Notes: generated by a model not told the origin, from the letters alone. Shown: positions 5,150 through 51,894, numbered from the stretch's first letter. The stretch: DNA of 53,998 nt from a virus (IMGVR_UViG_2541047728_000014); one strand, 5' to 3'. Program-made: numbers and translations.

Positions 5150-6268
5150 TTACAAAATGGAATATTCAGGGTAATAAACAAAGCGCCCGATCTCACCATA
5201 ATCCTGGCTGTAAATAATCACCGCTGCCATACGACGTGACCGCCAGCCGCCATTAGTTGAGTAAGCGTCTTTACCCGCTAACGTGCCGTGATACTCAACA
5301 ACGCCTAACGATGATTCAATTAGCCGTTGATGATGCCAGTGCCCGCAATGAGCGTAAACCGCCGCAGACTTGCCAAAGTCTTCTCGCCAGTCAGAGACGC
5401 AGGCAGACAACAAATTTTCAGGTTTTTTGATAGTATGACCGTGATGATATGCAAGGAATGTTTTGCCGTACTGTGTGTGGTGGACGATGGCAGGTGACAC
5501 ATCAACAGTAACGCGCGGTACATCTTCGTAAAAAGCCGCCAGCGCCGCACGTAGCCAGATCATTCCTGACTGGTCGTGATTACCTGATAACACCTGAATT
5601 TCTACATCCTTATGATTCAACAACATCTTACCTACAGCACGCCGGACCGACCGGATCGCCACGTAAACAAGTTTTGCGTAGCGTGAATCACAATCCAAAA
5701 CGTGATTACTTGATGGCGTCACTGGTAACAGTCCGTCAGTGTGGAGCACATCCCCTCCTAACAGCAAAAAAGCTTTTTCAGACATCGGTGCAGCGCCTAC
5801 CGCGTAGTCGAAGAAATCATTTAGCACGCGCTCAGCGATCCCGGTGTCGTAGCTCTCGCCGCATTCAGCTTTATGAGCAAGCGCCCCGATATGCAGATCA
5901 AATACCGGATAAAGGGCCAGGCTTTTTTGGAAATCAATTTCCGGCACTGGCACGGCCTCCGCGCGGGGTATTTCTTCCGTGAAGGCGTCACAAGCAGATT
6001 GCATTAGCCTTTCCATTTCATCGCGATCACGGGCTGTTTTAATCCAGCGCATAATCACATTGCCATCCTTATCGACGAGCAATGACTCACCATTGACGCC
6101 AAAACCCGGCGCGCGACGCGTGGATATTAAACCGCGTTTCGCCAACCGTGCGCCCAGGCGTTCGACGTTGCGTTTTGCCATTCCGTATTTTTCGGCGATC
6201 TGTTTATACGTTAGACCGTTGTTATGTTCAGTGATTAGCTGTTCATCACTAATCTTTCTTTGACACAT
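5150..6268 (-). CDS. Replication-associated protein: N-terminal HTH plus metallophosphoesterase-like domain
   Basis: ORF 5150..6319; start placed at MCQRKISDEQ (GGAGGATATAACATTATG); HTH-like LTYKQIAEKYGMAKRNVERL; phosphoesterase-like motifs GGDVLHTD, SGNHD, HCGHWHH. Confidence 0.6.
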   Translation of the reverse strand: MCQRKISDEQLITEHNNGLTYKQIAEKYGMAKRNVERLGARLAKRGLISTRRAPGFGVNGESLLVDKDGNVIMRWIKTARDRDEMERLMQSACDAFTEEIPRAEAVPVPEIDFQKSLALYPVFDLHIGALAHKAECGESYDTGIAERVLNDFFDYAVGAAPMSEKAFLLLGGDVLHTDGLLPVTPSSNHVLDCDSRYAKLVYVAIRSVRRAVGKMLLNHKDVEIQVLSGNHDQSGMIWLRAALAAFYEDVPRVTVDVSPAIVHHTQYGKTFLAYHHGHTIKKPENLLSACVSDWREDFGKSAAVYAHCGHWHHQRLIESSLGVVEYHGTLAGKDAYSTNGGWRSRRMAAVIIYSQDYGEIGRFVYYPEYSIL

Positions 6269-6302
6269 AATGTTATATCCTCCGGTTTTACATTTTGTAT
6301 AT

Positions 6303-7226
6303 TCATTGGCAGCAAACAATCTCTTTAAATGCTTCTTCTACCATGTCGAATACTTCCGGCCTGTAATAAAAAAACTCATTGCTACCATCAAATTTTACAG
6401 GAAAGTTAATTTTATAATTGCTAAAAGCCTTATGCATCGTGTTTTCTAGTTCATGTATATTTTCGGTTGGCCCTTCTAACGTTTTCACGATATGCAAATT
6501 AGGAATTCTAACGCCTGCTTTATGTGCGCTTTTTAATATCTCGTTTCTTCGTTTATTTTCCTGAACACTTACCCCAATTTTCATTTGTGTAGGCACTTCC
6601 AGATCATCAACCATGATGTAAAGTTTGCCATACTCATGACGAAGGAAACCGTATTTCGCGCATTTTGGACAGCCGTACCCGCTTTTAAGGTTGCAAGGCC
6701 TGGCAGACCACTCATGACTACAGATCTTGCAGCGGCACGGGACTTTATCTCTATGGTTCTTAATTTTTCCCAATACTTCAACATAAGTGTTAACTTTGGC
6801 TATATCTGTGATGTGTTCTTCGTGTGTTAATGTCCTTCCTTGTGCGCCTTTTAATATTCCGCATTTCGGGCAACCGCGCCCGCGTTTTAGGTTGCAAGGT
6901 GTAGCCGACCACTCATGACTACAGATATTGCAGCGGCATAATACTTTTGTTTTGTCATTAATAATTTCACCCAACACTTCAATATCAGGATTAACTTTCG
7001 CGATAGCGGCAATATGTTCTTCGTGCGATAACTTCATCTTCCCAGCGCATTTCGGGCAACCGCGCCCGTGTTTTAGGTTGCAAGGTGTAGCCGACCACTC
7101 ATGATCACAAACCTTGCAACGGCATAACACTTTTTTATGATTTCCGGTAATTTCTCCCAGCACTTCAACATCAGGATTAATTTTCGCAATAGCCGCAATT
7201 TGTTCTTCGTGTGTTAACTTGCGCAT
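6303..7226 (-). CDS. Protein with three tandem Cys4 zinc-ribbon repeats and a C-terminal T5orf172/GIY-YIG-like domain
   Basis: 307 aa; three ~50-aa repeats LTHEEHIAAIAKVNPD.EVLGEI....KV.CRC.ICSHEWSATPCNLK.G.GCPKC; C-terminal GKLYIMVDDLEVPTQMKIGVS ... GSNEFFYYRPEVF resembles the T5orf172 family (from memory). Confidence 0.6.
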   Translation of the reverse strand: MRKLTHEEQIAAIAKINPDVEVLGEITGNHKKVLCRCKVCDHEWSATPCNLKHGRGCPKCAGKMKLSHEEHIAAIAKVNPDIEVLGEIINDKTKVLCRCNICSHEWSATPCNLKRGRGCPKCGILKGAQGRTLTHEEHITDIAKVNTYVEVLGKIKNHRDKVPCRCKICSHEWSARPCNLKSGYGCPKCAKYGFLRHEYGKLYIMVDDLEVPTQMKIGVSVQENKRRNEILKSAHKAGVRIPNLHIVKTLEGPTENIHELENTMHKAFSNYKINFPVKFDGSNEFFYYRPEVFDMVEEAFKEIVCCQ

Positions 7227-7366
7227 CGTTCCAACTCCTTAAAACGCCTCAGACGCGCTACAATGCAAAAACCCACCGCGTAACCCATTTGCACAGGTTG
7301 CAGTGTCTTATTGCGTCAGAGGCGCTATCATGTGGCTAATTTTTGATTTACAGACTGGTAGGTATG

Positions 7367-7468
7367 TTATGGATTGACGCGAAGGAACAAACCGCCGAAC
7401 AAAACGACGTTTACAGCGATTGCCGCAGCGATGGCAAAAGCCACGGCGAAAACGTGTTTACTATCCAT
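7367..7468 (-). CDS. Candidate small hydrophobic peptide (33 aa)
   Basis: Hand-called ORF MDSKHVFAVAFAIAAAIAVNVVLFGGLFLRVNP with GAGAGGA RBS about 8 nt upstream; in the gap between the zinc-ribbon gene and the replisome organiser. Confidence 0.3.
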   Translation of the reverse strand: MDSKHVFAVAFAIAAAIAVNVVLFGGLFLRVNP

Positions 7469-7600
7469 TTTAAAATCCTCTCTGTAACGCTCTCTAACGA
7501 GCTAATCGCAAAAAGGCAAGCAAGTTAGCACCACATGCGATTTAGCTCGCTGGTGAGGTTGTTTTGTGGGTAATTTTGGATTTTTGCGGATCGTGGTTGG

Positions 7601-8647
7601 TCAAAGAGCGCCAGCGCGCGTATCACGTAGCGTTTTTGGTTTAAGCAGGAAATCAAGTGTCGCAGTGAAGCCATTGCCGAAGTAAAAATCTGAAGCCGTG
7701 TTTTTGAACGTTTCGAAGTAGGCGACAAAGCCGTTAATGCTTTTGTCTTTCAGGTAGTCAGCGAACGCATAGATCTTGCGTTCAAGATCCCGATCCAGTT
7801 CGGCAGGTGGTAACAGGCCGTCAAACGTGCTGTTAAATGCTTCCACCACGTCGGCAGCGTTTACAGTAGCTGATAGCTTGCGCCATTGCTCAGCGTCAGC
7901 CAGATACCCATCGAATTTAGTTACCCGGCAAATGTTGATAGGCTTAGGTGTTCCACCACGGCTGCGCCATTGCGTCAAAGCCCATTCGATTACTAATGTG
8001 ATCTCATCCTCCGTGTATGCCTTACGTGTTTTTGTTTCTGTCAGTAGTTCGATAAATGGCTTAGCATCACGACACTTGCATCCAGCTTTGTCGTTGTAGA
8101 AGGCCAAGCAACGCAATGCCGCTTCGTTTACGCCATCCTGATTGACCGTTTTTTGTCCATTTTCGCTAATACACGAAGTGTATATATCTTTTTCTCTTTC
8201 TTCTTCTACTTCTAATTCATGACCCTTTCCTGACCCGGTCATGACCCTATCATGACCTTTTGGTGTTGGATTGATTAACTTCTCTAATTTTAATTGCTCC
8301 TTCGCTGTGTTTATAGCAGCCCTATAAGCGCTCTTAGAAGTCATTGATTGGTCCAGCCTTTTTAATAACTTTAGGCAAGTTATGTGGCCTTGAGAACATT
8401 CGAACAAACCAATTTCGATGAAGTATTTCATCATTTCTTCTATACGTTTTTCAGTAGATCCGACGTTTCGCGCAATGATTCTCGCGTCATGTCGTAGGTC
8501 AAAATTCAGATTGTGCTGATCTACGTCATAAGTTATTAGTTCGAGGCAATACCAATAAAGCCCGTACCCTTCCAGGCCATAATCTAACAAAACGTTTTGA
8601 AGTTTTTCATCGCGGTTCGCATCGCTGTCATGCTTAAACCACTTCAT
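7601..8647 (-). CDS. Phage replisome organiser / replication initiation protein (Lin1244/DUF4373-like N-terminus)
   Basis: 348 aa; N-terminal MKWFKHDSDANRDEKLQNVLLDYGLEGYGLYWYCLELI matches the conserved N-terminal domain of phage replication initiators; CCGGAGG RBS. Confidence 0.7.
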   Translation of the reverse strand: MKWFKHDSDANRDEKLQNVLLDYGLEGYGLYWYCLELITYDVDQHNLNFDLRHDARIIARNVGSTEKRIEEMMKYFIEIGLFECSQGHITCLKLLKRLDQSMTSKSAYRAAINTAKEQLKLEKLINPTPKGHDRVMTGSGKGHELEVEEEREKDIYTSCISENGQKTVNQDGVNEAALRCLAFYNDKAGCKCRDAKPFIELLTETKTRKAYTEDEITLVIEWALTQWRSRGGTPKPINICRVTKFDGYLADAEQWRKLSATVNAADVVEAFNSTFDGLLPPAELDRDLERKIYAFADYLKDKSINGFVAYFETFKNTASDFYFGNGFTATLDFLLKPKTLRDTRAGAL

Positions 8648-8650
8648 AGA

Positions 8651-8902
8651 TCATCCCTCCGGCAACATCACTACATAGACATCACTGAATGCATCAAGAC
8701 GACAAACAAATCCTTTATCCATTAACGCGGCGAAGGCATCATGTACCGTATGAACAGGAAGTTCACACATTGCGGCTACTTCTTTGCGTGATGCATCATG
8801 TACCCGTCCTTTGTTATCTGCCTTTTCAGCCAGAGCCATTAAGACAAGTTTTTGAATCGGGCTATTAAGTTTTACGTTCCATGCTTTACTAATCATACTC
8901 AT
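8651..8902 (-). CDS. Winged-helix/HTH DNA-binding protein, first gene of the leftward early operon (Cro/CII-position regulator)
   Basis: ORF 8651..8980 opens with TTG; ATG start at MSMISKAWNV preferred (AGGAGA RBS about 8 nt upstream); HTH-like LVLMALAEKADNKGRVHDASRKEVAAMCELPVHTVHDAFAALMDKGFV; transcribed divergently from cI. Confidence 0.55.
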   Translation of the reverse strand: MSMISKAWNVKLNSPIQKLVLMALAEKADNKGRVHDASRKEVAAMCELPVHTVHDAFAALMDKGFVCRLDAFSDVYVVMLPEG

Positions 8903-9093
8903 CGCATTTTCTCCTATGGTTAGAGTGAACGCGCGGGCGGGCATCCCATTAGCATTAGATAGCAGTGACTGACCGCTCAACAGATCCCGCCGTTGCGTGA
9001 TATTTGTTTTTCGCTTCGCAGCGACACCGGATTTTTAAAGAGCATAAGGTAAGTGCCTTTTTGTGCCTTCAGTTATCTTTTTCCTTGCGTCTT

Positions 9094-9177
9094 TGCAAGT
9101 ATGGCCTTACCTTGTCTGCAAGTTTACAAAATGGAATTTTAAGATCAAGGCTTAAAATACACGTTTTGTGACTTGCA
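9094..9177. promoter_or_regulatory. cI / early-operon divergent control region with ~27-bp inverted repeat and TGCAAGT repeats
   Basis: TGCAAGT at about 9094, 9117 and inverted at 9171; arms TGCAAGTTTACAAAATGGAATTTTAAG (9117-9143) and the reverse complement of 9150-9177 are near-identical; candidate leftward promoter TTGATG-16-TATTTT on the minus strand. Confidence 0.5.
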
Positions 9178-9207
9178 TCAAACTTTTTGAGGTTATAGGG
9201 TAGCGAC

Positions 9208-9855
9208 ATGAAAACAAAATGGTATGACTTAGCAAAGCAGCTCATGCGGGCGCAGGGCATGAGCCAGGATTCACTCGCGGATCGTATGGGGATAACTAAA
9301 GGCGGCCTGTCACACTGGCTGAACGGTCGCCGAGAGCCAAATCTTGAAGATATTGCGCGGATTATGCGCGAGCTTGGTCGTCGGCAGTTTACTGTTACAC
9401 ATGATGGCATGGTCATTGATGATTCTGTTTCTAATACACTTCAGGCCGTGCCGCCGCGTGATTTAGGTAGTTACCCGGTTATTGACTGGAAGGACACAGT
9501 AAACAATATGGATGACGCAAGGCGTTCAGCATTACGACACGTTACGACTAGCGTTATTTGTTCAGATGACAGTTACTGGCTGGTTGCCAAAGGTGAATCA
9601 ATGAACGCGCCGCAGGGGTTGAGCATCCCGGCGGGGACGATGATACTTGTGGACCCGCACGCGCCAGCTATTGACGGCAAACTGGTTATAGCCCAGCTTG
9701 AGGAAGGGCAGATACCGACGTTTAAACAGTTGATTATTGATGGAGGTCAAAGGCTTTTACGTTCGCTCAATCCGCTGTATCCGCCAATCCCTATGAATCC
9801 AGAATCAAAAATTATAGGCGTGGTGGTTGATGCGAAGATCGTAAACCTGCCATAA
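9208..9855 (+). CDS. cI: CI-like prophage repressor (HTH plus S24 LexA-like peptidase domain)
   Basis: 215 aa; N-terminal HTH (MSQDSLADRMGITKGGLSHWLNGRREP); C-terminal S24 domain with GESMNAP (Ser) and TFKQL (Lys) dyad. Confidence 0.9.
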   Translation: MKTKWYDLAKQLMRAQGMSQDSLADRMGITKGGLSHWLNGRREPNLEDIARIMRELGRRQFTVTHDGMVIDDSVSNTLQAVPPRDLGSYPVIDWKDTVNNMDDARRSALRHVTTSVICSDDSYWLVAKGESMNAPQGLSIPAGTMILVDPHAPAIDGKLVIAQLEEGQIPTFKQLIIDGGQRLLRSLNPLYPPIPMNPESKIIGVVVDAKIVNLP

Positions 9856-9860
9856 ACATT

Positions 9861-9886
9861 AGCCGCCGAATGGCGGCTTTTCTTTG
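9861..9886 (+). terminator. Rho-independent terminator after cI
   Basis: Hairpin GCCGCC-GAAT-GGCGGC followed by TTTTCTTT directly after the cI stop. Confidence 0.65.
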
Positions 9887-9978
9887 CCTGGAAAACACCA
9901 AAACGTAAACAGAAAACGTTATTTATTATTTAAATATCAATGGCATATAAAATATTTTAAAAAAGTATACAAAATGGA

Positions 9979-10007
9979 TTGACTCGATGTTTTACGGGGC
10001 GTATATT
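9979..10007 (+). promoter_or_regulatory. Candidate pL-like early promoter
   Basis: TTGACT-N17-TATATT (-35 at 9979-9984, -10 at 10002-10007), preceded by an AT-rich tract and a GTATACAAAATGG motif copy; about 350 nt upstream of the N-like gene. Confidence 0.45.
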
Positions 10008-10261
10008 GCGAGTCAAAGGAAGGGCGCAGGTAACAAAAGCAACTTCCTGGCACTTTAAAAATCAGGCTTAACACCTTGTCAACCGTGGAGTAACTCCCCG
10101 ATGGGGGACCGAAAGCGGCACTGATAACAAGGCGCATGGGGTGTTTAAAGCGTTACATCCCCCACGAAACCGCACGCAAGGCGACGAGTCAGCTTGCTTG
10201 GAGTGAGCAAGGTCACGCCGGGAACGGCGATGATTGCGGGATTAGTTGAAAGATGTTAAGC

Positions 10262-10299: not shown

Positions 10300-10355
10300 A
10301 ATTAACGAAGATGATTTTTTATTAAGTATCATCAAGGATATACGGAGATCAGATT

Positions 10356-10646
10356 ATGAGCGTTACAATTATATATGGTAAATGTGATAGCAAAATGAAT
10401 GCCAGGGAACGCAGAAGGATAAAAAGAGAAAACGAAAGAAAATCATCACCTGCAATCAATAAAACAGACAATGTGGATAAAGCTATTCGATTTGCAAACG
10501 AGGAAAGATGCAAACCAAATAGCATTAAAGAACGTCGCAAAGGATCAGTAAAATGGTATACGGAAAATGAAAGCGGCAGCTACTACCACGCAACGCAACC
10601 ACGCCATTTAGGGGAAAAACCCCTGGATAAAGTCCGCTACCATTAA
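10356..10646 (+). CDS. N-like transcription antiterminator (arginine-rich motif protein)
   Basis: 96-aa basic protein; MNARERRRIKRENERK resembles the arginine-rich motif of lambdoid N proteins; first gene after the candidate pL and nut site. Confidence 0.55.
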   Translation: MSVTIIYGKCDSKMNARERRRIKRENERKSSPAINKTDNVDKAIRFANEERCKPNSIKERRKGSVKWYTENESGSYYHATQPRHLGEKPLDKVRYH

Positions 10647-10676
10647 TACAAAATGTAAACATCCGGAGGTGACATT

Positions 10677-10799
10677 ATGGTTATTCAGGCGCTTCAATTC
10701 AAACTGGCAGTAGCGGAAATGCTTCACGATGCCGAAATGTGGAGCGCCGCGAATAAAGCCTTATACATAGTGTTAACAGCACGGGAGATTAAATGGTGA
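10677..10799 (+). CDS. Small hypothetical protein (40 aa)
   Basis: Hand-called ORF MVIQALQFKLAVAEMLHDAEMWSAANKALYIVLTARENKW; CCGGAGG RBS 7 nt upstream; stop overlaps the erf start (ATGGTGA). Confidence 0.4.
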   Translation: MVIQALQFKLAVAEMLHDAEMWSAANKALYIVLTAREIKW

Positions 10800-11437
10800 A
10801 AACAGAGTTACATAAAAAGCTATGGACGATTCAGCAAACGCTGAACGCGCCGAAAAATCAGCGTAATAATTTTGGTGGATATAATTACAGGTCGGCGGAG
10901 GATATTTTAGAGGCGGTTAAACCACTGCTTCAAAGTATTACGCTGACTGTAAGCGATGAAATTGTCCTGATCGGCAATCGCTATTATGTGAAAGCTACGG
11001 CGACGCTAAGCGACGGTGAAGACGAAATAGCGGTAACGGCTTACGCCAGGGAAGAAGAAAGCAAGAAGGGAATGGACGCAAGCCAGCTAACAGGTGCGAC
11101 ATCAAGTTACGCGCGAAAATATGCTTTGAACGGTTTATTCTGCATTGATGATGCGCGAGATCCTGATACTGACGCATACGCTAAGCAGACAGGCCAGCAG
11201 CCTCGCCAGCAGAAAAACCCACCAAAACAACAACCACAGCAGCAGAAAGCGCCGCCAAATCCTGATGAAGTATTAGCACGTTTCTGTGATGCAGCAGCGA
11301 AAGCGCAGGACGCTAACAAGCTGCGTGAAATATTTGGCAAATGCTGGAAATTACTACCGGAAGGATCGGAACATCGAATCAAGGCAAAAGATGTTTATGA
11401 CATCCGGGTAGCAGAGCTTAACGGGGAGATGGGTTAA
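10793..11437 (+). CDS. erf: Erf-family single-strand annealing protein
   Basis: 214 aa; LNAPKNQRNNFGGYNYRSAEDILEAVKPLL...IVLIGNRYYVKATATLSDGEDEI...KKGMDASQLTGATSSYARKYALNGLF closely resembles P22 Erf as recalled. Confidence 0.8.
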   Translation: MVKTELHKKLWTIQQTLNAPKNQRNNFGGYNYRSAEDILEAVKPLLQSITLTVSDEIVLIGNRYYVKATATLSDGEDEIAVTAYAREEESKKGMDASQLTGATSSYARKYALNGLFCIDDARDPDTDAYAKQTGQQPRQQKNPPKQQPQQQKAPPNPDEVLARFCDAAAKAQDANKLREIFGKCWKLLPEGSEHRIKAKDVYDIRVAELNGEMG

Positions 11438-11856: not shown

Positions 11857-11872
11857 AATCAATGTGTTAGCT

Positions 11873-12655: not shown

Positions 12656-12924
12656 CTCTGTGGGATGCAAAAGAAGGTGATCTCGTTGTCTTGCCAGCAT
12701 ATCGTAGTGATCTCGGGCTGGTCGTACTGAATAAAACATGTAGCGACATTCAACGCCCGATCCTGGTTAGATACTTAGACGGCACGATGATCGAACCGCG
12801 TTTCTTCGACAAAGTTGAACTGAAGGCCCGCAATGTTCGCGTTAAGCCTTTCCGGGCTTATGTTGAAAATCACTGGCGTAAATTGTTCGCCGGACTGAAT
12901 GGGATGTTCGGCGTATGGCTATAA
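12652..12924 (+). CDS. Hypothetical protein (90 aa)
   Basis: ORF in operon packing; no recognisable domain. Confidence 0.5.
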   Translation: MTLWDAKEGDLVVLPAYRSDLGLVVLNKTCSDIQRPILVRYLDGTMIEPRFFDKVELKARNVRVKPFRAYVENHWRKLFAGLNGMFGVWL

Positions 12925-14060: not shown

Positions 14061-14064
14061 CAGC

Positions 14065-14123
14065 GTGATTGCGATCACATAAATATACATTTTGTATTGC
14101 GATCGCATATCCGTTTTGTAAAC
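14065..14123. promoter_or_regulatory. Intergenic regulatory region: CRP-like palindrome plus two TACA/TGTA motif copies
   Basis: GTGATTGCGATCACA (14065-14079); TGCGATCGCA perfect palindrome (14098-14107); TACATTTTGTAT (14086-14097) and CCGTTTTGTAAAC (14111-14123); upstream of the gene starting at 14159. Confidence 0.45.
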
Positions 14124-14158
14124 TGAAATTAAGAGGTTTACGGCACGGAGGAAACAAG

Positions 14159-17633: not shown

Positions 17634-17713
17634 TTTACAAAATGGCGTCATTGCGTGATATGGATCACATAATGGCGCTTTTCGCCTTGTTCTGGTGTAT
17701 CCATTTTGTATAC
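17634..17713. promoter_or_regulatory. Intergenic regulatory region: inverted pair of TTTACAAAATGG motifs flanking a CRP-like palindrome
   Basis: TTTACAAAATGG (17634-17645), GTGATATGGATCACA (17655-17669), CCATTTTGTATAC (17701-17713); between the MTase-like gene and the ninF-like gene. Confidence 0.45.
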
Positions 17714-17790
17714 TTCAAGCAAACAAAATGCTCTTTAAAAATCCGGCAGCGCTGAAATGCGTAGAAATCACCTGAAAAGGAGAGAGCATT

Positions 17791-24160: not shown

Positions 24161-24220
24161 TGTGATCTGTATCACAATGTTTACGAAATGGCATTGTTTC
24201 GGCAGTGCCATTTTGTTATA
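24161..24220. promoter_or_regulatory. Intergenic regulatory region: near-consensus CRP-like palindrome followed by an inverted motif pair
   Basis: AAATGTGATCTGTATCACAAT (palindrome 24161-24176) close to CRP consensus TGTGA-N6-TCACA; then GTTTACGAAATGGCA and TGCCATTTTGTTATATA (8-bp inverted repeat AAATGGCA/TGCCATTT); upstream of the gene starting at 24252. Confidence 0.5.
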
Positions 24221-24251
24221 TATAAGCCACTGAAAGACGGATGGCAAAATC

Positions 24252-24898: not shown

Positions 24899-25133
24899 AC
24901 CTTACAAAATCCGGTGTAAGGGAGAGTATCCGGGATTTACGATTGGGTGTGAATACCTGGGCTGTATGGGGTATGGCCCTTTTGGTGAATTAGGGATGAA
25001 TACGATTGACGACGACAGCGACAACAGGACGCTTGATCTTGATTCTGATGATTTCGAATACATCCCGCCAGTAACTTACCGCGTAGTTGATTATTTCCTA
25101 GCTGAACAAGAAGGCGAGGGCGATGATGATTGA
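24882..25133 (+). CDS. Hypothetical acidic protein (83 aa; start uncertain)
   Basis: ORF opens with TTG; Asp/Glu-rich C-terminus (EQEGEGDDD). Confidence 0.35.
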   Translation: MSASNKPYKIRCKGEYPGFTIGCEYLGCMGYGPFGELGMNTIDDDSDNRTLDLDSDDFEYIPPVTYRVVDYFLAEQEGEGDDD

Positions 25134-39531: not shown

Positions 39532-39834
39532 AATCAACCCCCTGTAATTATTCTGATTTGCTAAATGCTTCCTTTAACTTAGTTATACACGCATATTGTT
39601 TATTTTTTAAGTGCTTTTAACATTTCTTCGATAAGGTCCGCATAGCGTTCATATTCGTTGGGACGGTAGTTTACGTTTCTCATTTTCTTATCCTCTTTCA
39701 CTTCCTCCGGGACATCCGGCCTTCCTGCATCTCTTCTATCTTTCTCTACATCATCTATACAAAACGGTATCGTTAAAATAAAGACATTTTGTATAAAATA
39801 GATACATAGATCACATTTTGCATGAGGTTAAATC

Positions 39835-42263: not shown

Positions 42264-42518
42264 TCACTTATGAGTGCCTTTCACGCCACATAACTTGTTA
42301 TAGGCATGGTGCTCAACAATTAACCAAACCTTCAAATCTTCGCTAAACAGCCTCCAATCAAGATTGATATCCATTTTGTATCCGTAACCGTCGCGTAACT
42401 TTTTGGGGTAAACTTCTTTTCTCAGAAAGGCTTTAAGTAATTCCTTACCTTTCTTGATGATCCGGTCCTGTGCGTTTTTCTGTGCTTTCAGATTTCTGTC
42501 AATCGCTACCAGTTTCAT
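42264..42518 (-). CDS. Hypothetical small protein (84 aa), possibly RelE/ParE-superfamily toxin-like; second gene of a minus-strand two-gene cassette
   Basis: GGGGTGAG RBS; size and C-terminal LKVWLIVEHHAYNKL are loosely reminiscent of RelE/ParE/YoeB toxins; unverified. Confidence 0.4.
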   Translation of the reverse strand: MKLVAIDRNLKAQKNAQDRIIKKGKELLKAFLRKEVYPKKLRDGYGYKMDINLDWRLFSEDLKVWLIVEHHAYNKLCGVKGTHK

Positions 42519-42535
42519 AACTCACCCCATCATCC

Positions 42536-42691
42536 TTAGTTAAGTGCCTTCAGGAAGAAGTCCCGGTATTCATCTTCTTTCGCATTCATCATGAATTGAC
42601 CGTATTTGAATGCGTCGTCGAAACCCTTAACGATTGCTATTTCCACTTGTTCGAATGCGTTATTTAGCATTACTACTACATAGCGTTTCAT
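42536..42691 (-). CDS. Hypothetical small protein (51 aa), first gene of the minus-strand two-gene cassette
   Basis: Hand-called ORF MKRYVVVMLNNAFEQVEIAIVKGFDDAFKYGQFMMNAKEDEYRDFFLKALN with GAAGGAGG RBS; 17 nt upstream of the 84-aa ORF. Confidence 0.4.
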   Translation of the reverse strand: MKRYVVVMLNNAFEQVEIAIVKGFDDAFKYGQFMMNAKEDEYRDFFLKALN

Positions 42692-42760
42692 TTTGGGCCT
42701 CCTTCGTTGGTACTACTTTCTTCTTGCTTTCTATATACATCTTGTTGCGTGCTATGTGAA

Positions 42761-42845
42761 GCCATTTTGTAAACTAGCTATAATCATTGTGACAATGATC
42801 TTATTTTTCGCGTGGAAGCGCGTAAAGATATATACAAAATGTAAC
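42761..42845. promoter_or_regulatory. Divergent control region between the minus-strand cassette and gpM
   Basis: GCCATTTTGTAAAC (42761-42774), TATAAT (42779-42784), 17-bp palindrome ATCATTGTGACAATGAT (about 42783-42799), TATACAAAATGTAAC (42831-42845) 14 nt upstream of the gpM ATG. Confidence 0.5.
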
Positions 42846-43506: not shown

Positions 43507-43755
43507 TCATAACACTCCCTTCAAATATGTCAATCCCTTATCGGTGACGAATGAATGATTTACCTGGTTTTCATCCGTCATGATGATAAATAACTTTTCC
43601 TGTAGGTATTTCGCTTTCGGGTACAGCGTTAAACATACCTGGTACAGAATCCCGCGCTCAATCAGCAAATCAATAAATTCGTGCTCATGATAACCGACGA
43701 GGCGGGCAGCCTGTTTCAACGTGTACACATAATCACCGTGATTGCGCCGCCCCAT
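43507..43755 (-). CDS. Hypothetical HTH-like small protein (82 aa), last gene of a minus-strand island in the tail module
   Basis: ORF 43507..43821; start placed at MGRRNHGDYV (AGGAG RBS); YTLKQAARLVGYHEHEFIDLLIERGIL looks like a helix-turn-helix. Confidence 0.45.
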   Translation of the reverse strand: MGRRNHGDYVYTLKQAARLVGYHEHEFIDLLIERGILYQVCLTLYPKAKYLQEKLFIIMTDENQVNHSFVTDKGLTYLKGVL

Positions 43756-43765
43756 GATTTTACTC

Positions 43766-43999
43766 CTACGCATCAAAAAATAGCATATCAGGCATAAAAT
43801 CATCGCCGTAAACAGTTCCATACCCTTTCACCATGCCTCCAGAAACATCAAGCACTGTCAGCGGAACAAAGTTTAAACAGTTGCCAACAGTGAAATAAGT
43901 ACCAGAAGATGTTTTGAATAATGGGTATTTATCTTTTATATTAAAATCCTTCTTTTTGTTAGATGTAACAACGAGTTTGATAATACCTATCATCTTCAT
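43766..43999 (-). CDS. Hypothetical small protein (about 77 aa)
   Basis: ORF 43766..44011 opens with GTG; ATG at MKMIGIIKLVV preferred. Confidence 0.4.
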   Translation of the reverse strand: MKMIGIIKLVVTSNKKKDFNIKDKYPLFKTSSGTYFTVGNCLNFVPLTVLDVSGGMVKGYGTVYGDDFMPDMLFFDA

Positions 44000-44014
44000 A
44001 TATTGGCTCACTCT

Positions 44015-44365
44015 TTATTTGCCATTAAAACAGCTTAGGTTATCGATGCAGAAGTCTTTCGCAGCTTTTTCGTATTCGCATTTTGCTTCTGGATCGTCAG
44101 CCGGGAAACCTTTTGCGTGTATTTCACCAGGGCAAGACTGATCCATAGAGTCTGCAAAATTAACATTGAAGTTAACATTAATATCTTTCGGGTTCATATC
44201 TTCCACCTCATCAACTATCTGTACCGGATTAGCAGCATATTTCACTGGATGGCCTAAACTACATTCAAGAATCCTGCCTTCTTCCAGGGCTACTTCTTCG
44301 CTATCAAATAATCCGAAACACTCCTTGCTACCACTTAACCACACATCAAGACTGTATTTTTTCAT
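44015..44365 (-). CDS. Hypothetical protein (116 aa), paralogue of the upstream 62-aa gene with a Cys-containing C-terminal extension
   Basis: Part of ORF 44015..44467 starting at MKKYSLDVWLSGSKECFGLFDSEEVALEEG; N-terminal 55 aa align with MTEKPWKLTVFMTDGREKVIALYDDEGEALVDA of the neighbouring gene. Confidence 0.45.
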   Translation of the reverse strand: MKKYSLDVWLSGSKECFGLFDSEEVALEEGRILECSLGHPVKYAANPVQIVDEVEDMNPKDINVNFNVNFADSMDQSCPGEIHAKGFPADDPEAKCEYEKAAKDFCIDNLSCFNGK

Positions 44366-44534
44366 TTTTGTTAGCCTCATATTTGACAGGTTCGATCTGG
44401 TATCCCAAAAGGCGGTCATCCTCAGCAAGTAAAAGCGCGTCAACCAATGCTTCCCCCTCGTCGTCATACAGGGCGATAACCTTTTCCCTACCGTCTGTCA
44501 TGAATACCGTCAACTTCCATGGCTTTTCAGTCAT
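44346..44534 (-). CDS. Hypothetical small protein (62 aa), first gene of the minus-strand island
   Basis: Part of ORF 44346..44654 starting at MTEKPWKLTVF (GGAGG RBS, preceded by an AACAAAATGG motif copy). Confidence 0.45.
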   Translation of the reverse strand: MTEKPWKLTVFMTDGREKVIALYDDEGEALVDALLLAEDDRLLGYQIEPVKYEANKNEKIQS

Positions 44535-44663
44535 AACGCACCTCCGCGCCATTTTGTTAACTTCCCCTTCGTTTGAGTAAAATATACATATTGTAAAAAC
44601 CATGATCAATCCATTTTGGTGTGATTTAGCGTGACGCATATCACAAAATGACAAGGTGAGAAA

Positions 44664-45368: not shown

Positions 45369-45370
45369 TT

Positions 45371-46575: not shown

Positions 46576-46589
46576 CAGGAGAATTAACC

Positions 46590-49500: not shown

Positions 49501-51452
49501 GCATTGACAACGTTATCGCTGAAGAGAAAAAAGCGACAGCGGAATCACTGGAAACCATCACGGCAGAAATGAATGTGATGGACACAAACCTTAAAGGTCA
49601 GATCTCTAATGTGCAACGCGCAGTAGCTGACGAGGCCAGCGCTCGCGCTGAAGCTATTAACGGTGTAAATGCCTCAATAAGCAATCTTGACAAGAAAACT
49701 GACGCCAGCGTAAACCGTCTTGATCGGGCAATTGCAGACGAAACAAGTGCGCGTACTCAGGCTATCAGCGACGTGAACGCAAGTATCTCAACGCTTGACA
49801 AGAAAACTGACGCCAGTGTTAAGCGCCTCGATAAGGCAATATCAGATGAAACGCAGGCAAGAAGCGACGCAATAACAGTGGTTAAAGCTGATTTAACAAC
49901 GCTTGAAAATAACACAAATGCCAGTGTTAGCCGTCTTGATCAAGCTATCGCTGACGAATCAAGCACACGCGCTCAGGCGATATCAGGTATCAGCGCGTCG
50001 CTTGGCAGCGTTAAAAGTGAGGTTGATAAAAACAGCGACGAGATAGTTCAGGCGAAAGCAGGTCTGCAAAACGCATCTCTGGCGCTTATTAATAACTCAA
50101 TGGCGCAAAGCAAGATGAGCACTGTTATTGAGGCGAAATACAGGAAAGGACAAACAAAAACAAAAGCGGAAATAGCAAGGGTAGACACAGCAATCGCAGA
50201 TGAGGCGAGCGCACGCGCAGAAGCTATTAGCGGGATTAATGCGTCAATTTCCACGCTCGATAGCAAGGTGACAAGCAACGTAACCAGGATGGATAAAGCG
50301 ATCGCAGATGAGAAGAATGCACGCACTGACGCAATCAGCAGCCTTAACTCATCGCTTACCAGTACGATTAATTCGAAAGTATCCGAAGTGTCAACTGCAC
50401 TTTCTACGCATGAAACATCAAGCGCGGAAAAATTTGGCCAGATCTCGGCATCTTTCGACGATGTAAACTCAAGCATCACGGAATGGTCACAGGCTATGGC
50501 AACGGCAGACGAGGCATTGTCAACCAGAATCGACCAGTTGAAAGTAACTATTAACGGAAACACAACGGCGATAGAAACGACATCAAAAGCACTGACTGAC
50601 TTCAAAGGTAACGTTGATGCGTCATATTCAATTAAGATTGCCACTGATAAAAACGGTATGAAATACGCTACAGGAATGTCGCTCGGCCTTACTGGTAGCG
50701 GGACTAACGTTCAATCGCAGTGTATTTTCCTCGTTGACCGTTTCGTGCTTATGACTGCGGCAGGTGGCTCCTATCAGACCCCGTTCTATGTTACTAACGG
50801 TGCTTGCTACATCCGTGATGCGTGGATCAGAGACGCATCAATCACTACCGCGAAGATTGCGCAGCAAATTCAGTCAACCAACTATAAAGCTGGTTCGGCT
50901 GGCTGGATGCTAAATAAAAACGGCAATGCGGAGTTCAACAACGTCACTGTACGCGGTACGGTGTACGCAACATCTGGTAAATTCACTGGTGAGATTCAGG
51001 CCACAAGCGGGAAGTTTAAAGGTACAGTAGAGGCAAAGTCATTTGTCGGTGACGTTGCTAACATGGGGGTTGGTCCAGATCGAGTGCTTGGGCATAACGG
51101 AAGTTATAGCGCAACCATCACATATAAAGACAGCACGGATAATGCATTGACGAAATCAGTTATGCTTATGGCGACTATTTCATTAATGTCTGGTGAATAT
51201 AGATCCACTTATAACGTAACGTTTAGTTGCGGAGATAAAAACAAAACAATTTCATATTACGTGCCTTATGGTGGATGCACATTAACAGTGCAATGCGCTT
51301 TTTCTGGTTTAAAAGCATCAGATATTATCGGGAAAATATATTGTCCTCAAACATCATCATCTGAAGGATACGCATATTGTACCGCGTTGTATTCTCCAAC
51401 AATGATAGTAGCAAGAGGCACCGGATCATTTAGAACATCAACGACAGCATAA
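46590..51452 (+). CDS. Host specificity / central tail fibre protein J with extended repeat-rich C-terminal region
   Basis: 1620 aa; N-terminal two-thirds parallels lambda gpJ (KTPTLINDNLYHKQFYRVLDIISEGPIYGP ...); C-terminal part has tandem ~30-aa repeats (ADEASARAEAINGVNASISNLDKKTDASVNRLD...). Confidence 0.88.
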   Translation: MSSGGGKAKTPTLINDNLYHKQFYRVLDIISEGPIYGPVNTKAPLNSVMLNDTPVTDANGNTSVPGVSVAWRNGTLDQSPINGFNAIESTVIVNAQVKHDTPIIRTVSDPNVARVRLNIGVDSLVQSDEQSNQHNTSVMMMIDVKPSSSSAWTLVKDVTIGPGKISGEYLEAHIINAPDEKPFDIRVRRVTADSTSDLLRNGTRWSSYSEIIDDNLSYPHTAVAGAVIDHDQYTDTPTRTYHLRGLIVDVPDNYNPETRTYSGLWLGGFKKAYTNNPAWIFRYLVKNERFGLARHAGYIDVDDGALYTLSQYCDQLVDDGYGGLEPRVTLNAYITEQMSARDLLDNIAGMFRGIALWDGQRLTVMIDAPQDPIATITNANVVDGAFTRSSIARAECYNAVIVSWTDPENGWEQSKEYVADDELIARDGYNETTLEAFGCTSRGQAYRAGKWLIETAKREPSKFTFKMARDAIHFTPGDIIEILDNNRAGARLGGRIVVNSGRVITVDKVDSEYIAPGDTISLLDSDGKFKKHQITGVSGNKITLASAPAWIRNGTVFAVSTNAAKPVLCRITSVAETENNSVYTIEAAQHDPHKQAVVDNGAIFEINNDTLNHFRVPNIENLKVLNVGSETVQCRATWETQTTTRRLTFEIRVYNADGAVVKSYETTNYSYDFYGIDSGTYSLGIRGRNDTGMKGAESVVDLVIGAPAAPIGVNWVPGVFQATVYPISRTTLTTDTSYEFYYSGETQITDPASVTTKAQYTGRGHQWTFGGMNTGHIYYVYVRTRNAFGVSDFVEASGKPTENFDEITDYVTKDVMNSKQFKEMVGDIKDLGDRTDLIESATNDLKTATDNLKTATDNLTNITDDLRTETDNLTIETGLIKADTDTLKKETEDLYKKVKENADDIGQHESRIDSLEVSSEKVGSELAQAKASLQNASLALINNSLAQTNTRVTLTAQYKKGRTETKAEIDRIDNVIAEEKKATAESLETITAEMNVMDTNLKGQISNVQRAVADEASARAEAINGVNASISNLDKKTDASVNRLDRAIADETSARTQAISDVNASISTLDKKTDASVKRLDKAISDETQARSDAITVVKADLTTLENNTNASVSRLDQAIADESSTRAQAISGISASLGSVKSEVDKNSDEIVQAKAGLQNASLALINNSMAQSKMSTVIEAKYRKGQTKTKAEIARVDTAIADEASARAEAISGINASISTLDSKVTSNVTRMDKAIADEKNARTDAISSLNSSLTSTINSKVSEVSTALSTHETSSAEKFGQISASFDDVNSSITEWSQAMATADEALSTRIDQLKVTINGNTTAIETTSKALTDFKGNVDASYSIKIATDKNGMKYATGMSLGLTGSGTNVQSQCIFLVDRFVLMTAAGGSYQTPFYVTNGACYIRDAWIRDASITTAKIAQQIQSTNYKAGSAGWMLNKNGNAEFNNVTVRGTVYATSGKFTGEIQATSGKFKGTVEAKSFVGDVANMGVGPDRVLGHNGSYSATITYKDSTDNALTKSVMLMATISLMSGEYRSTYNVTFSCGDKNKTISYYVPYGGCTLTVQCAFSGLKASDIIGKIYCPQTSSSEGYAYCTALYSPTMIVARGTGSFRTSTTA

Positions 51453-51480
51453 AAAACGGGGCATAAGCCCCGTTTTTTTA
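51451..51480. terminator. Bidirectional terminator after J
   Basis: AAAAACGGGGC-ATAA-GCCCCGTTTTTTT. Confidence 0.7.
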
Positions 51481-51490
51481 TGCATTGTTT

Positions 51491-51736
51491 TTATTTTTTA
51501 CACCCATCATTTACACCAGAAAAATGGATAGGTAAATTACATTCACTGTCAATAATTTTACCTTGTAGTTGTTTTTCTTTCCATGAGTCAGTATTGAAAT
51601 AACTCGAACGTTGGTTATCAAGGCCAGTATCACCATATTGAGCAGTGCCAGCATCACTCTTATCTGTCGAATTTACAGAAGCAAAAGCACCAAAAGACAG
51701 AGCTGATAAGATGCAAGCAACAATTAGTTTTTTCAT
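51491..51736 (-). CDS. Small secreted protein (81 aa precursor); moron between J and the side tail fibre gene
   Basis: ORF 51491..51793; ATG at MKKLIVACILSALSFGAFA (signal peptide) with AAGGTGA RBS; two Cys in the mature part; reverse orientation to the tail genes. Confidence 0.5.
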   Translation of the reverse strand: MKKLIVACILSALSFGAFASVNSTDKSDAGTAQYGDTGLDNQRSSYFNTDSWKEKQLQGKIIDSECNLPIHFSGVNDGCKK

Positions 51737-51850
51737 TGTATTCACCTTACTGTTTGTTTTACTGTCATTTGTTGTTCGTGATGATCCACCCATCCGATGA
51801 GCAAATCACCGCAGAAGCTATCATTTCGTATGTTGATATAGATCAAAAAA

Positions 51851-51894
51851 TACATTATGTATAAGATCAAAGTGTAACGCGGATTACAAAATGG
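51851..51894. promoter_or_regulatory. Divergent control region with TACATTATGTATA and ATTACAAAATGG motif copies
   Basis: TACATTATGTATA (51851-51863) toward the minus-strand secreted-protein gene; ATTACAAAATGG (51883-51894) followed by TAGAAT, 37 nt upstream of the tail-fibre ATG. Confidence 0.4.

Follow-up and report, generated by a model that had tools for sequence, protein, structure and literature searches.

The window – 53,998 nucleotides of viral DNA (IMGVR_UViG_2541047728_000014) – is the complete genome of a temperate Escherichia coli phage from the mEpimmI group, the relatives of mEp021 and mEp010. The phage has its own lambda-CI-like repressor, Rep. The Rep translation has an N-terminal helix-turn-helix (HTH) and a C-terminal S24/LexA-type domain, and a Rep orthologue is named ‘LexA family protein’ by PGAP. 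Rep021 has been shown experimentally to confer immunity (PMC11893012). The immunity region is organized as follows, with operators and promoters as predicted from sequence:

9123-9137, no strand assigned: OL2-like operator TTTACAAAATGGAAT in the PL/rep-promoter region; left arm of a 27-nt inverted repeat, I1
9158-9172, no strand assigned: OL1-like operator TACACGTTTTGTGAC; right arm of I1, ~43 bp upstream of the rep start codon
9208-9855, plus strand: rep, the CI-like repressor gene, whose product is the proposed binder of the motif
9966-9980, no strand assigned: OR2-like operator TATACAAAATGGATT, centred at about -41, whose end overlaps the first 2 nt of the PR -35 hexamer
9979-10007, plus strand: PR, rightward early promoter TTGACT-17-TATATT, found by consensus scan with 10/12 matches
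9991-10005, no strand assigned: OR1-like operator TTTACGGGGCGTATA, centred at about -16, with perfect half-sites around a GC-rich middle; its end overlaps the first 4 nt of the PR -10 hexamer

The two PR operators are 25 bp apart, and a nutR1 boxA-like sequence lies downstream of PR at ~10048-10071 (also PMC11893012). On the other side of rep, the 9158-9172 site falls in the spacer of a predicted leftward PL (TTGATG-16-TATTTT, 9181 to 9154), whose hexamers we identified by eye and the promoter scan did not report. Motif copies therefore flank the repressor gene (9123 and 9158 to the left, 9966 and 9991 on PR) and overlap the early promoters. Leaving boxA/nut repeats aside, the best repeat common to the regions left and right of rep is the 16-mer AAGTWTACAAAATGGA, two copies of which form the 27-nt inverted repeat on the left.

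The same motif recurs across the genome. The original prediction described a recurrent AT-rich motif at a frequency far beyond chance, and counts against expectation and shuffled sequence confirm it. The 8-mer ACAAAATG/CATTTTGT – the most frequent among the strongly enriched 8-mers of the window – was observed 22 times in the window against 2.9 expected, with 16-17 of the 22 copies in non-coding DNA, which makes up ~13% of the window. TACAWWWTGTA has 6 matches in the window against 0.10 expected, and TTTACAAAATGG with at most two mismatches has 27 against 8.7, a count reached by no shuffle. A position weight matrix (PWM) built from the window sites returned 23 sites at or above its 14-bit threshold against 1.2 in Markov shuffles, a count that is partly circular because the matrix was derived from those sites; in genomes where it is not circular, the same scan found 19 sites (mEp021) and 20 sites (mEp010).

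Our own tally is 25 sites at 12 loci. Every position in the original list of about 18 intergenic sites carries the sequence described, and the sites are real with one exception: 24902-24910 is a single half-site, really CTTACA-N8-TGTAAG, and not a proper copy. The list was also incomplete, and we added 9991-10005, 39756-39770, 42734-42748, 44608-44622 and 51912-51926. An extended context proposed for three early gene starts was found at 5131-5163, 6263-6301 and 10645-10679 as ..TGTAAA(A)C..CCGGAGG-N7-ATG. Outside the immunity region, which holds the minority of copies (21 of the 25 sites lie beyond it), the loci are:

5149-5163, no strand assigned: operator A TTTACAAAATGGAAT, intra-operon, adjoining the Shine-Dalgarno of the helicase gene in an 18-bp gap upstream of it
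6287-6301, no strand assigned: operator B TTTACATTTTGTATA, intra-operon, with perfect half-sites, before the 5150-6263 gene
10645-10659, no strand assigned: operator E AATACAAAATGTAAA, intra-operon, separating the N-like gp17 gene from the next one
14084-14122, plus strand: pair F2 (14084-14098) and F1 (14108-14122), 24 bp apart in the PR register, on predicted promoter TTGCGA(14097-14102)-16-TAAACT(14119-14124), read by eye
17634-17648, no strand assigned: operator G1 TTTACAAAATGGCGT, overlapping the 5' arm of an intrinsic terminator hairpin
17698-17712, no strand assigned: operator G2 TATCCATTTTGTATA, overlapping the -10 of predicted promoter TTGTTC(17687-17692)-16-TATACT(17709-17714), read by eye, with the boxA of nutR2 (a site described in PMC11893012) ~15 nt downstream
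24180-24220, plus strand: pair H2 (24180-24194) and H1 (24206-24220), 26 bp apart, on predicted promoter TTGTTT(24194-24199)-17-TATATA(24217-24222), read by eye
39756-39824, no strand assigned: tripartite cluster J (39756-39770, 39781-39795, 39810-39824), its sites 25 and 29 bp apart, in the gap where a reverse-oriented cassette and the tape-measure gene diverge
42734-42845, no strand assigned: cluster K (42734-42748, 42759-42773, 42831-42845), the first two 25 bp apart in the PR register; a minus-strand predicted promoter TTCACA(42760 to 42755)-17-TATATA(42737 to 42732), read by eye, points into a cassette encoding a ParE-like toxin, and a plus-strand TATAAT (42779-42784) follows site 42759-42773
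44546-44622, no strand assigned: tripartite cluster L (44546-44560, 44583-44597, 44608-44622), its second and third sites 25 bp apart in the PR register; a minus-strand promoter TTGATC-17-TATATT (44609 to 44581), found by scan, reads into a cassette encoding an Ant/KilAC-domain protein (Pfam ANT match)
51849-51926, no strand assigned: tripartite cluster M (51849-51863, 51883-51897, 51912-51926), its sites 34 and 29 bp apart, in a divergent gap ahead of the tail-fibre gene; 51883-51897 shares letters with an extended -10-like TGgTAGAAT

Five of the clusters are adjoined by CRP-like palindromes.

The motif is a 15-bp pseudo-palindrome, TWTACA-N3-TGTAWA, present in both orientations. Like lambdoid CI-type operators, which span 13-17 bp, it is short and dyad-symmetric, with conserved half-sites and a variable centre. 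In about 14 copies TGG replaces TGT in one half – a consistent asymmetry that a simple symmetric dimer model leaves without explanation. The counted operators include weak sites at 39810, 44608, 9158 and 51912. The 25 sites occupy 12 of 41 gaps, including five of the six divergent gaps and none of the six convergent ones. The original placement of the motif at the starts of transcription units, often in pairs, is correct, and the pairs fall into two spacing classes: neighbours are 24-26 bp apart six times and 29-36 bp apart six times. Both classes also occur in the OL/OR regions of ST64T and ENT1 (25-26 bp among them), and the six closer pairs have the centre-to-centre spacing (~24-26 bp) suited to pairwise cooperative binding.

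Six predicted promoters – PR and five further ones – share the PR register, in which one operator lies at the upstream edge of the -35 and the other, 24-26 bp away, over the -10. A consensus scan found only PR and 44609-44581; the other predicted promoters were read by eye. Their -10 matches consist in part of operator half-site letters (GTATA), and promoter-like matches in the late region are not enriched (21 against 22.6 expected in shuffles). No predicted promoter lies near the three intra-operon sites (5149, 6287 and 10645).

We observed the motif at 3.3-7.8 sites per 10 kb in all 42 IMG/VR relatives that encode Rep (N-terminal domain at least 94.6% identical), against 4 sites in ~330 kb at 33 loci with only the replication-protein domain in common. 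Synteny holds for each early-region site in 33-42 of the 42 relatives. Left of rep, both 9123-9137 and 9158-9172 align in 42/42, and at the latter 12 relatives have the better match AATACATTTTGTGAC. On PR, 9966-9980 is kept in 41/42 (the sole variant changes TGG to TGT), and 9991-10005 keeps its half-sites around a centre of GGGGC, GTGGC or AGGGC. Operator A aligns in 39/42; operator B is present in 33/42 with centre ATTTT, AGAAT or AAATT; and operator E is present in 41/42, with centres TAAC and TATC between intact half-sites. The H pair belongs to an accessory cassette that mEp021 lacks. Across the 42 relatives, changes cluster in the central bases while the TAC(A/G) and (T/C)GTA cores stay intact, and 89% of operator columns are invariant against 72% in the surrounding non-coding DNA (Fisher p ~1e-10, with columns that are not independent). 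Part of this conservation reflects shared ancestry, since the relatives are close (~87-93% identical), and no heteroimmune relative was found among those searched.

Homologous repressors provide a comparison for the site. The N-terminal 72 amino acids of Rep are 54-61% identical (tblastn) to repressors of phage L/ST64T, Midgardsormr38, ENT1 and Klebsiella prophages, and the recognition helix TKGxxSHWLNGRR is common to Rep and epsilon34 gp46 (VTKGAVSHWLNGRR in epsilon34 matching ITKGGLSHWLNGRR in Rep). The cro-cI gap of L/ST64T, Midgardsormr38, ENT1 and the Klebsiella phage holds three copies each of WATACA-N3-TGTAT, with more in OL, and the cro-cI gap of epsilon34 likewise has three. Two sequences, ATACAATTTGTAT and ATACGATGTGTAT, are marked as potential repressor sites in the epsilon34 GenBank record, and the published consensus is WTACRAWWTGTAT (PMC2629481). 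A related repressor, that of 933W, binds by experiment a 15-bp site symmetric about the central base pair (PMC3317979). It is reported to be a non-cooperative binder. The motif lies at 12758, 12783 and 12813 (OL) and 13565, 13591 and 13625 (OR) in ST64T, and four of four perfect sites in ENT1 are at OL or OR; neither genome has a motif excess outside OL/OR. The homologous repressors use the same site family at OR/OL. Searching the window for Cro with L/epsilon34-family queries returned no homologue – the queries match only Rep's own HTH.

We therefore conclude, with good though not complete confidence, that the motif is most likely the operator of Rep: it is the best non-nut repeat common to the PL and PR regions, phages whose repressors share its recognition helix carry the palindrome as a triplet in the cro-cI gap, and the window encodes no Cro homologue. 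The original prediction offered a regulator site or a promoter element, which it considered not resolvable from sequence; comparative sequence analysis decides for the CI-like repressor and supports the phage-regulator reading, and the promoter element fails. We infer that Rep binds these sites, probably cooperatively at close pairs, and that the secondary promoters are active.

The reading of the motif as a promoter part – an UP-like or -35-proximal element, an extended -10, or the site of a phage-specific activating factor – has some local appeal. ACAAAATGGN abuts the -35 at three promoters (9966-9984, 42755-42773 and 44604-44622) with an A-tract that we take to resemble a proximal UP subsite, and the motif's TG forms an extended -10 (TGgTAGAAT) at 51883-51900. 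Lambda CI activates PRM from a site centred near -41, so some copies at this position could activate instead of repress. The position of the motif is variable, however: about -41, -16 to -18, -24, or ~+17 downstream of the predicted start, which is incompatible with the fixed position relative to the -10 or start of a sigma-70 promoter element. Some copies lie against a Shine-Dalgarno with no nearby promoter, many are palindromic, both orientations occur, and in homologous phages the palindrome is the canonical triple operator between cro and cI; we consider a promoter part improbable. We give a similarly low probability to binding by another phage protein, instead of or alongside Rep. Such a protein might be a functional analogue of Cro, the gp14-like winged-helix protein (8651-8902) or the MarR-like protein (3073-3630). 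Cro and CI share operators in lambdoid phages, and a lytic-phase regulator could use Rep's sites in the same way; the window also encodes further putative DNA-binding proteins, with N-terminal domain matches to PHROG ‘MarR family’ and ‘replication initiation’ proteins, and an Lrp/AsnC-type name appears in PGAP annotation. Yet the L/epsilon34-family Cro is absent from the window, none of the other proteins has any link to the motif sequence, and homology points specifically to the Rep-type HTH.

Still less probable is binding by the host, for example by an E. coli transcription factor or nucleoid protein that recognises TACA..TGTA. The AT-richness of the motif and its location in promoter regions would suit such a factor, and host regulators may act at the five clusters with CRP-like palindromes. 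To our knowledge the consensus matches no E. coli factor – the TyrR, CRP, FNR, LexA, ArgR and Fur boxes differ – and the motif tracks the Rep-type repressor in phages of Salmonella, Erwinia, Enterobacter and Klebsiella, always at immunity regions; its confinement to OL/OR in ST64T and ENT1 also argues against a host protein. An equally slight chance attaches to protein binding being incidental, with the copies serving as recombination linkers between mosaic modules or as start-associated sequences acting at the RNA or translation level. Homology breakpoints within 40 bp of operators number 37 against 12.4 expected among the 42 relatives, and flanks diverge right at the motif in clusters B, J and M; but a single locus (6275-6300) supplies 26 of the 37, the relatives do not count as independent, and such a role could follow secondarily from dispersal instead of competing with it as an explanation. 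A Shine-Dalgarno lies 0-5 nt from 7-8 of the 25 copies, and three copies share TGTAAAC..CCGGAGG-N7-ATG, but copies point either way relative to genes, many lie at a distance from start codons, and conservation follows the dyad half-sites rather than an RNA or Shine-Dalgarno-linked pattern. Start-associated sequences of the Cluster K mycobacteriophage type have a single orientation directly upstream of start codons, which these copies do not.

With Rep as the binder, the arrangement suggests a specific mechanism. Each monomer of a Rep dimer would contact one half-site, and at PR two dimers, probably binding cooperatively like those at lambda OR1/OR2, would keep RNA polymerase out. This two-operator module is repeated at the five further predicted promoters, with looser clusters in the PL/rep region, at the promoter upstream of nutR2 and at all four of the divergent junctions beside reverse-oriented cassettes in the tail-gene region. 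Given operators at all these loci, we propose that Rep silences a dozen loci at once in the lysogen, and that RecA-stimulated Rep cleavage would release them together. The three intra-operon sites against ribosome-binding sites could be roadblocks or auxiliary looping sites, the weakest part of the proposal; this role and repression at the secondary promoters are both inferred.

The closest known systems are the OR/OL regions of L, ST64T and epsilon34, with which this phage shares a WATACA-N3-TGTAT dyad of 13-15 bp, a homologous HTH with a near-identical recognition helix, sites that overlap early promoters, and spacings of ~25 bp and ~30-35 bp. Those phages have two clusters that flank the repressor gene and are shared with Cro, whereas here most sites lie outside, no Cro homologue is present, and rep sits between PL and PR, transcribed in the same direction as the PR operon; it is in confinement to OL/OR and sharing with Cro that the present system is a variant. 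Lambda also offers paired operators ~24-25 bp apart over the early-promoter -35 and -10, and N-like antitermination with nut sites downstream of promoters. The lambda operator is 17 bp, and differs from this one in sequence as well as length; lambda CI acts at two operator regions only, against ~12 loci here, the late region included. The HTH plus self-cleaving S24 architecture is common to both repressors (PMC11893012).

Dispersed operators have other precedents. Many repressor sites are scattered genome-wide in short intergenic gaps, including inside operons, in the case of the stoperators of mycobacteriophage L5 and other Cluster A phages (PMC9283540). The 25 sites at 12 loci described here, three of them single intra-operon sites, are dispersed in the same way. 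A stoperator is an asymmetric 13-mer to which a two-domain repressor binds as a monomer, and its orientation follows transcription so that elongation is stopped; the sites here are instead pseudo-palindromic, in both orientations and mostly over predicted promoters, and Rep is of the CI/LexA type. In P1 (C1) and phiC31, where the repressor binds conserved inverted repeats, one immunity repressor has many scattered operators, mostly at the heads of separate transcription units. The scattering is similar here, but the repressor families are unrelated, P1 uses an asymmetric 17-mer as its operator, and these phages are of other lineages and hosts. LexA, the regulator of the SOS regulon, belongs to the same superfamily (HTH or winged HTH plus S24), controls tens of dispersed palindromic boxes and is inactivated through RecA, but it serves the host and recognises another box (CTGT-N8-ACAG), and the Rep regulon lies within the phage genome.

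What is unusual is thus the dispersal, which suggests one protein silencing many separate promoters and not only those beside the repressor gene. As a whole, the combined picture – a genome-wide silencer with copied modules, tail-gene control, an nutR2 feed, roadblocks and no Cro – is tentative, and we think it unlikely to hold in every part. If it did, a lambda-CI-type repressor would be a genome-wide silencer instead of a two-operator switch in this phage family, with copies of PR-like operator-promoter modules and of OR-like tripartite clusters at every divergent junction, four of them in the tail-gene region. Tail genes and the reverse cassettes (ParE-like toxin, Ant-domain protein) would then be directly Rep-controlled through internal promoters that do not depend on Q. 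The need for three nut sites in these phages would be explained by a third early promoter under Rep control that feeds nutR2, while single intra-operon sites would act as elongation roadblocks and the system would run without Cro.

Consistent with the original prediction that an AT-rich motif recurs in the window beyond chance, we found pattern, mismatch and 8-mer counts above expectation. TACAWWWTGTA occurs 6 times against 0.10 expected, TTTACAAAATGG with up to two mismatches 27 times against 8.7, and ACAAAATG/CATTTTGT – the commonest strongly enriched 8-mer in the window – 22 times against 2.9, with 16–17 of these 22 exact copies falling in the ~13% of the genome that is non-coding. Alignment of the copies defines the unit as a 15-bp pseudo-palindrome, T-W-T-A-C-A/W-W-W/T-G-T-A-W-A. 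A position matrix built from 19 window sites (cut-off at least 14 bits) also revealed enrichment over shuffled controls, with Markov shuffles of the window giving ~1.2 sites, and detected 19 sites in mEp021 and 20 in mEp010. The predicted coordinates all hold except 24902-24910, a single half-site, and the prediction overlooked TTTACGGGGCGTATA at 9991-10005, which has the same half-sites around a GC-rich centre. At 24899-24918, CTTACAAAATCCGGTGTAAG places half-sites TTACA and TGTAA 8 bp apart rather than 3 (CTTACA-N8-TGTAAG), a spacing that puts them on different faces of the helix.

The copies fall into two classes: nearly symmetric ones (e.g., TATACAAAATGTAAC, TTTACATTTTGTATA) and ones with a single good half and TGG in the other (e.g., (AAG)TTTACAAAATGGA). 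A given site may have TGG in one genome and TGT in another: OR2, on the predicted rightward early promoter PR, is TGGATT in 36 of the relatives against TGTGTT in 5, and site A (5149-5163, before the helicase gene), TGGAAT in the window, is TGTATT in mEp010. We therefore treat the classes as versions of one site. Iterated refinement of the matrix drifted into start-codon contexts (AAAATGG) and was replaced by a curated matrix and plain k-mer counts. A half-site-only model was too noisy at 9/10 matches (34 vs 22 expected) and at 10/12 (44 vs 29), and was informative only at its strictest level, 11/12 (13 vs 1.8). An association with GATC/Dam sites was unconvincing (7 vs 4.5 expected within 20 bp; 11 vs 7.2 within 40 bp), and searching the literature for the motif strings yielded no relevant report.

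We counted 25 sites in 12 of the 41 intergenic gaps, and only four of them flank rep (9208-9855, +), the gene for the CI-like repressor Rep. Five of the six divergent gaps carry 2–3 sites each, and none of the six convergent gaps in the window carries one. Two good operator-like 15-mers also occur within coding sequence: AATACGCACTGTAAT at 30317-30331 in the terminase/portal region and TATCCATTTTGTATC at 42368-42382 in a ParE-like gene.

Putative operator loci in the window
5149 and 6287: A and B, single sites within the leftward replication operon
9123 and 9158: OL, region of the predicted leftward early promoter PL and rep
9966 and 9991: OR, on PR
10645: E, single site after the N-like gene
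14084 and 14108: F, pair
17634 and 17698: G, sites 64 bp apart, before nutR2
24180 and 24206: H, pair
39756-39824: J, late-region junction cluster where a reverse-oriented cassette meets the tape measure gene
42734-42845: K, late-region junction cluster where a reverse-oriented cassette meets a minor tail gene
44546-44622: L, late-region junction cluster where a reverse-oriented cassette meets the tail L gene
51849-51926: M, late-region junction cluster where a reverse-oriented cassette meets the tail fibre gene

The window is a complete genome of ~54 kb, collinear with the temperate E. coli phages mEp010, mEp013, mEp021, mEp044, mEp515, mEp554 and MagusPhagus (~87% identity) and with prophages adjoining dgcM in 35 complete E. 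coli genomes (best 93%). It belongs to the mEpimmI group, described in 2025 as prevalent among gut coliphages and possibly a new family, in which the CI-like Rep021 (the mEp021 counterpart of Rep) confers immunity alongside an N-like antiterminator (Gp17) with three nut sites and a Q-like late regulator (PMC11893012). That study names neither operators nor promoters, stating only that Rep 'may' recognise operators differing from those of lambda (PMC11893012). Within the Erf-family recombinase gene, 74 bp (11051-11124) are 84–85% identical to Bacteroides fragilis phages BF698P1 and BF698P3, an odd cross-phylum match at the nucleotide level.

The immunity region points to Rep as the binder. BoxA/nut repeats aside, the best repeat common to both flanks of rep is the 16-mer AAGTWTACAAAATGGA, two copies of which lie to the left of rep inside a 27-nt inverted repeat. 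To the right, a promoter scan found one strong promoter, PR (TTGACT-17-TATATT, 9979-10007), with two sites 25 bp apart: 9966-9980 overlaps the -35 hexamer by 2 nt and 9991-10005 overlaps the -10 hexamer by 4 nt. Flanked by PL and PR, the rep gene reads co-directionally with the PR operon. No Cro homologue was found in the window; the Cro proteins of phages L, epsilon34, Midgardsormr38 and a Klebsiella phage match only the helix-turn-helix of Rep, making Rep the only protein of the Cro/Rep type encoded there. At 8651-8902, the leftward operon opens with a gene whose similarity is to the N-terminal winged-helix domain of replication initiators and not to Cro. About 43 bp separate site 9158-9172 from the rep ATG downstream of it (9208), and a weak TTGCAT-17-TAGGGT would put a transcription start at or beside that ATG. 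By analogy with lambda PRM, where a repressor-activated promoter yields a leaderless cI message, this site could drive a nearly leaderless rep message if that start holds.

Comparison with homologous repressors links this motif to the Rep family. By tblastn, the N-terminal 72 residues of Rep are 54–61% identical to repressors of the Salmonella phages L and ST64T, Erwinia phage Midgardsormr38, Enterobacter phage ENT1 and Klebsiella prophages; over an 85-residue MAFFT alignment, identity is 47–51%. All of these phages are classical lambdoids with divergent cro and cI, and each cro–cI gap contains three copies of the same palindrome.

Sites in the cro–cI gaps of homologous phages
Phage L: AATACATTTCGTACT, AATACAATATGTGTG, AATACATCTCGTAAT
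Klebsiella phage: AATACATAACGTACT, AATACAAAATGGAAG, AATACGGAATGTAAT
Midgardsormr38: TATACATTTCGTATC, TATACAAAATGTGTC, AATACAGATTGTATG
ENT1: TATACGTTTTGTATT, TATACGAATTGTGGC, TATACAACTTGTATC

Further copies occur in their OL regions. In the GenBank record of epsilon34, ATACAATTTGTAT and ATACGATGTGTAT are marked as possible binding sites for the repressor, and the consensus published with the genome is WTACRAWWTGTAT, for a repressor that has the phage L protein among its nearest relatives (PMC2629481); the epsilon34 recognition helix (VTKGAVSHWLNGRR) is almost that of Rep (ITKGGLSHWLNGRR). The related 933W repressor was shown by experiment to bind a 15-bp operator symmetric about its central base pair, with specificity at positions 2–5 (PMC3317979), though its sequence specificity differs from that of the window motif. 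At the level of sequence, we regard the identity of the window motif with the operator family of the homologous repressors as established, and we infer that Rep dimers bind the 15-bp sites.

What sets the window apart from its lambdoid counterparts is dispersal. The ST64T sites lie at OL (12758, 12783, 12813) and OR (13565, 13591, 13625), all four perfect ENT1 sites lie at OL or OR, and neither control genome has a site excess outside these regions. Neighbouring window sites are spaced 24–26 bp apart six times and 29–36 bp six times, the same two classes as at OL and OR of ST64T and ENT1 (25/30, 26/34, 25/34), and clusters J, L and M thus look like extra copies of a tripartite OR.

The sites are conserved alongside Rep. 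Each early-region site is syntenic in 33–42 of the 42 relatives (IMG/VR loci encoding Rep), with variation mostly in the centre – AAAAT, ATAAC or ATATC at site E (10645), ATTTT, AGAAT or AAATT at site B (6287), and GGGGC, GTGGC or AGGGC at OR1 – while the TAC(A/G) and (T/C)GTA cores are kept. In 3–4-genome alignments, the share of invariant columns is 89% within operators and 72% in the rest of the non-coding DNA (odds ratio 3.1, Fisher p ~1e-10), a result that is supportive only, since columns and genomes are not independent. At clusters J and M, sites persist while flanks diverge. All 42 relatives carry 3.3–7.8 sites per 10 kb of early region, against 4 sites in ~330 kb across 33 loci sharing only a replication-protein domain – a weak control, as these are otherwise unrelated phages. 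No heteroimmune relative with the same backbone and another repressor was found in IMG/VR: all 42 backbone relatives carry the same Rep.

The register seen at PR, in which the final TT of the upstream operator opens the -35 hexamer and the final TATA/TAAA of the downstream operator opens the -10, could be read at five further loci.

Predicted operator-promoter modules
F, + strand: centres 24 bp apart, predicted promoter TTGCGA-16-TAAACT
H, + strand: centres 26 bp apart, predicted promoter TTGTTT-17-TATATA
J, - strand: centres 25 bp apart, predicted promoter TTTATT-17-TATAGA
K, - strand: centres 25 bp apart, predicted promoter TTCACA-17-TATATA
L, - strand: centres 25 bp apart, predicted promoter TTGATC-17-TATATT

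A consensus scan returned only PR and the L promoter and showed no overall enrichment of promoter-like matches; the other promoters were read by eye, and the -10 matches arise partly from the operator half-site itself. The predicted promoters at K and L, each with two overlapping operators, lead into accessory cassettes: K into one (42264-42691, -) that encodes a ParE-like toxin (Pfam PF24732, E = 9e-12) preceded by a 51-aa partner, L into one (43507-44534, -) that encodes an Ant/KilAC-domain protein (PF03374). At locus G, a methyltransferase gene is followed, within 17644-17760, by an intrinsic terminator with a 15-bp stem (-20 kcal/mol, z = -2.6) and a U-run. Site G1 overlaps this terminator; next come a predicted promoter (TTGTTC-16-TATACT), which site G2 overlaps, and, ~15 nt past it, the nutR2 boxA TGCTCTTTAAAAATC. 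Given this series, the third nut site may serve a third early promoter rather than PR read-through, and locus G would give it its own promoter under Rep control.

A second palindrome, CRP-like TGTGA-N6-TCACA with at most one mismatch, occurs five times against 1.3 expected (0 of 100 shuffles reached 5), at 9167-9182, 14064-14079, 17654-17669, 24161-24176 and 44630-44645. None of the five is more than 50 bp from an operator cluster, and at syntenic positions in mEp021 and mEp010 the half-sites are preserved around a variable 6-bp centre. The copies at F, H and L precede the predicted starts by ~60–63 bp, close to the class I position of CRP, an arrangement suggestive of CRP-activated, Rep-repressed promoters. 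The copy at 17654-17669, however, proved to be the tip of the terminator hairpin, and the palindrome is recorded as a side observation and not adopted as a second element.

The original prediction had left a promoter element and a regulator site as alternatives. The promoter element is excluded by the variable position and palindromic form of the motif; read as sigma-70 hexamers (TTTACA as -35, TATACA as -10), the copies had no consistent partners on inspection. A host factor binding the motif is unlikely because, in phages from four host genera, the site goes with the repressor family. A second phage protein may share the sites, though the window encodes no candidate of the right family. Breakpoints do concentrate near operators (37 vs 12.4 expected), as they would if the sites were recombination linkers, but one locus dominates this threefold excess (26 of 37), and a linker role is at most a side effect. 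At 6275-6300, the homology breakpoints that separate the window from 26 of the 42 IMG/VR relatives coincide exactly with operator B, and the adjoining zinc-ribbon gene region (6650-7250) is a mosaicism hotspot.

With the sites read as Rep operators, dimers on 25-bp pairs would fill them cooperatively and occlude the -35 and -10 hexamers, and secondary promoters would become active once Rep is removed. Lambda CI activates at PRM, and Rep on sites centred near -41, such as 9158-9172, might activate as well. The single sites A, B and E, with no promoter nearby, may act as roadblocks or looping partners, the least supported of the points inferred here.

The site family itself is already known as a putative operator, having been predicted for epsilon34 and found here in L/ST64T, Midgardsormr38, ENT1 and the Klebsiella phage. 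Dispersed repressor sites are known for P1 C1 and phiC31. Mycobacteriophages carry them as L5-type stoperators (PMC9283540). None of the P1, phiC31 and L5 repressors is related to Rep, and asymmetric sites are used in P1 and L5, against pseudo-palindromic ones in the window. To our knowledge, distributed immunity has so far been reported mainly from P1, phiC31 and mycobacteriophages. What appears to be new is a coliphage CI/LexA-type repressor with ~12 putative target loci, including late-region copies of the PR module and OR-like clusters, and no Cro; such a system is undescribed for mEpimmI, and we found none elsewhere in the literature searched.

The operator assignment would supply the missing cis-element of the mEpimmI immunity system and predicts a regulon of ~12 loci. 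If the dispersed sites are functional, distributed immunity would have an E. coli representative that relies on an ordinary CI/LexA-type repressor. The model also offers a reason for the third nut site and suggests how prophages hold promoter-bearing accessory cassettes silent.
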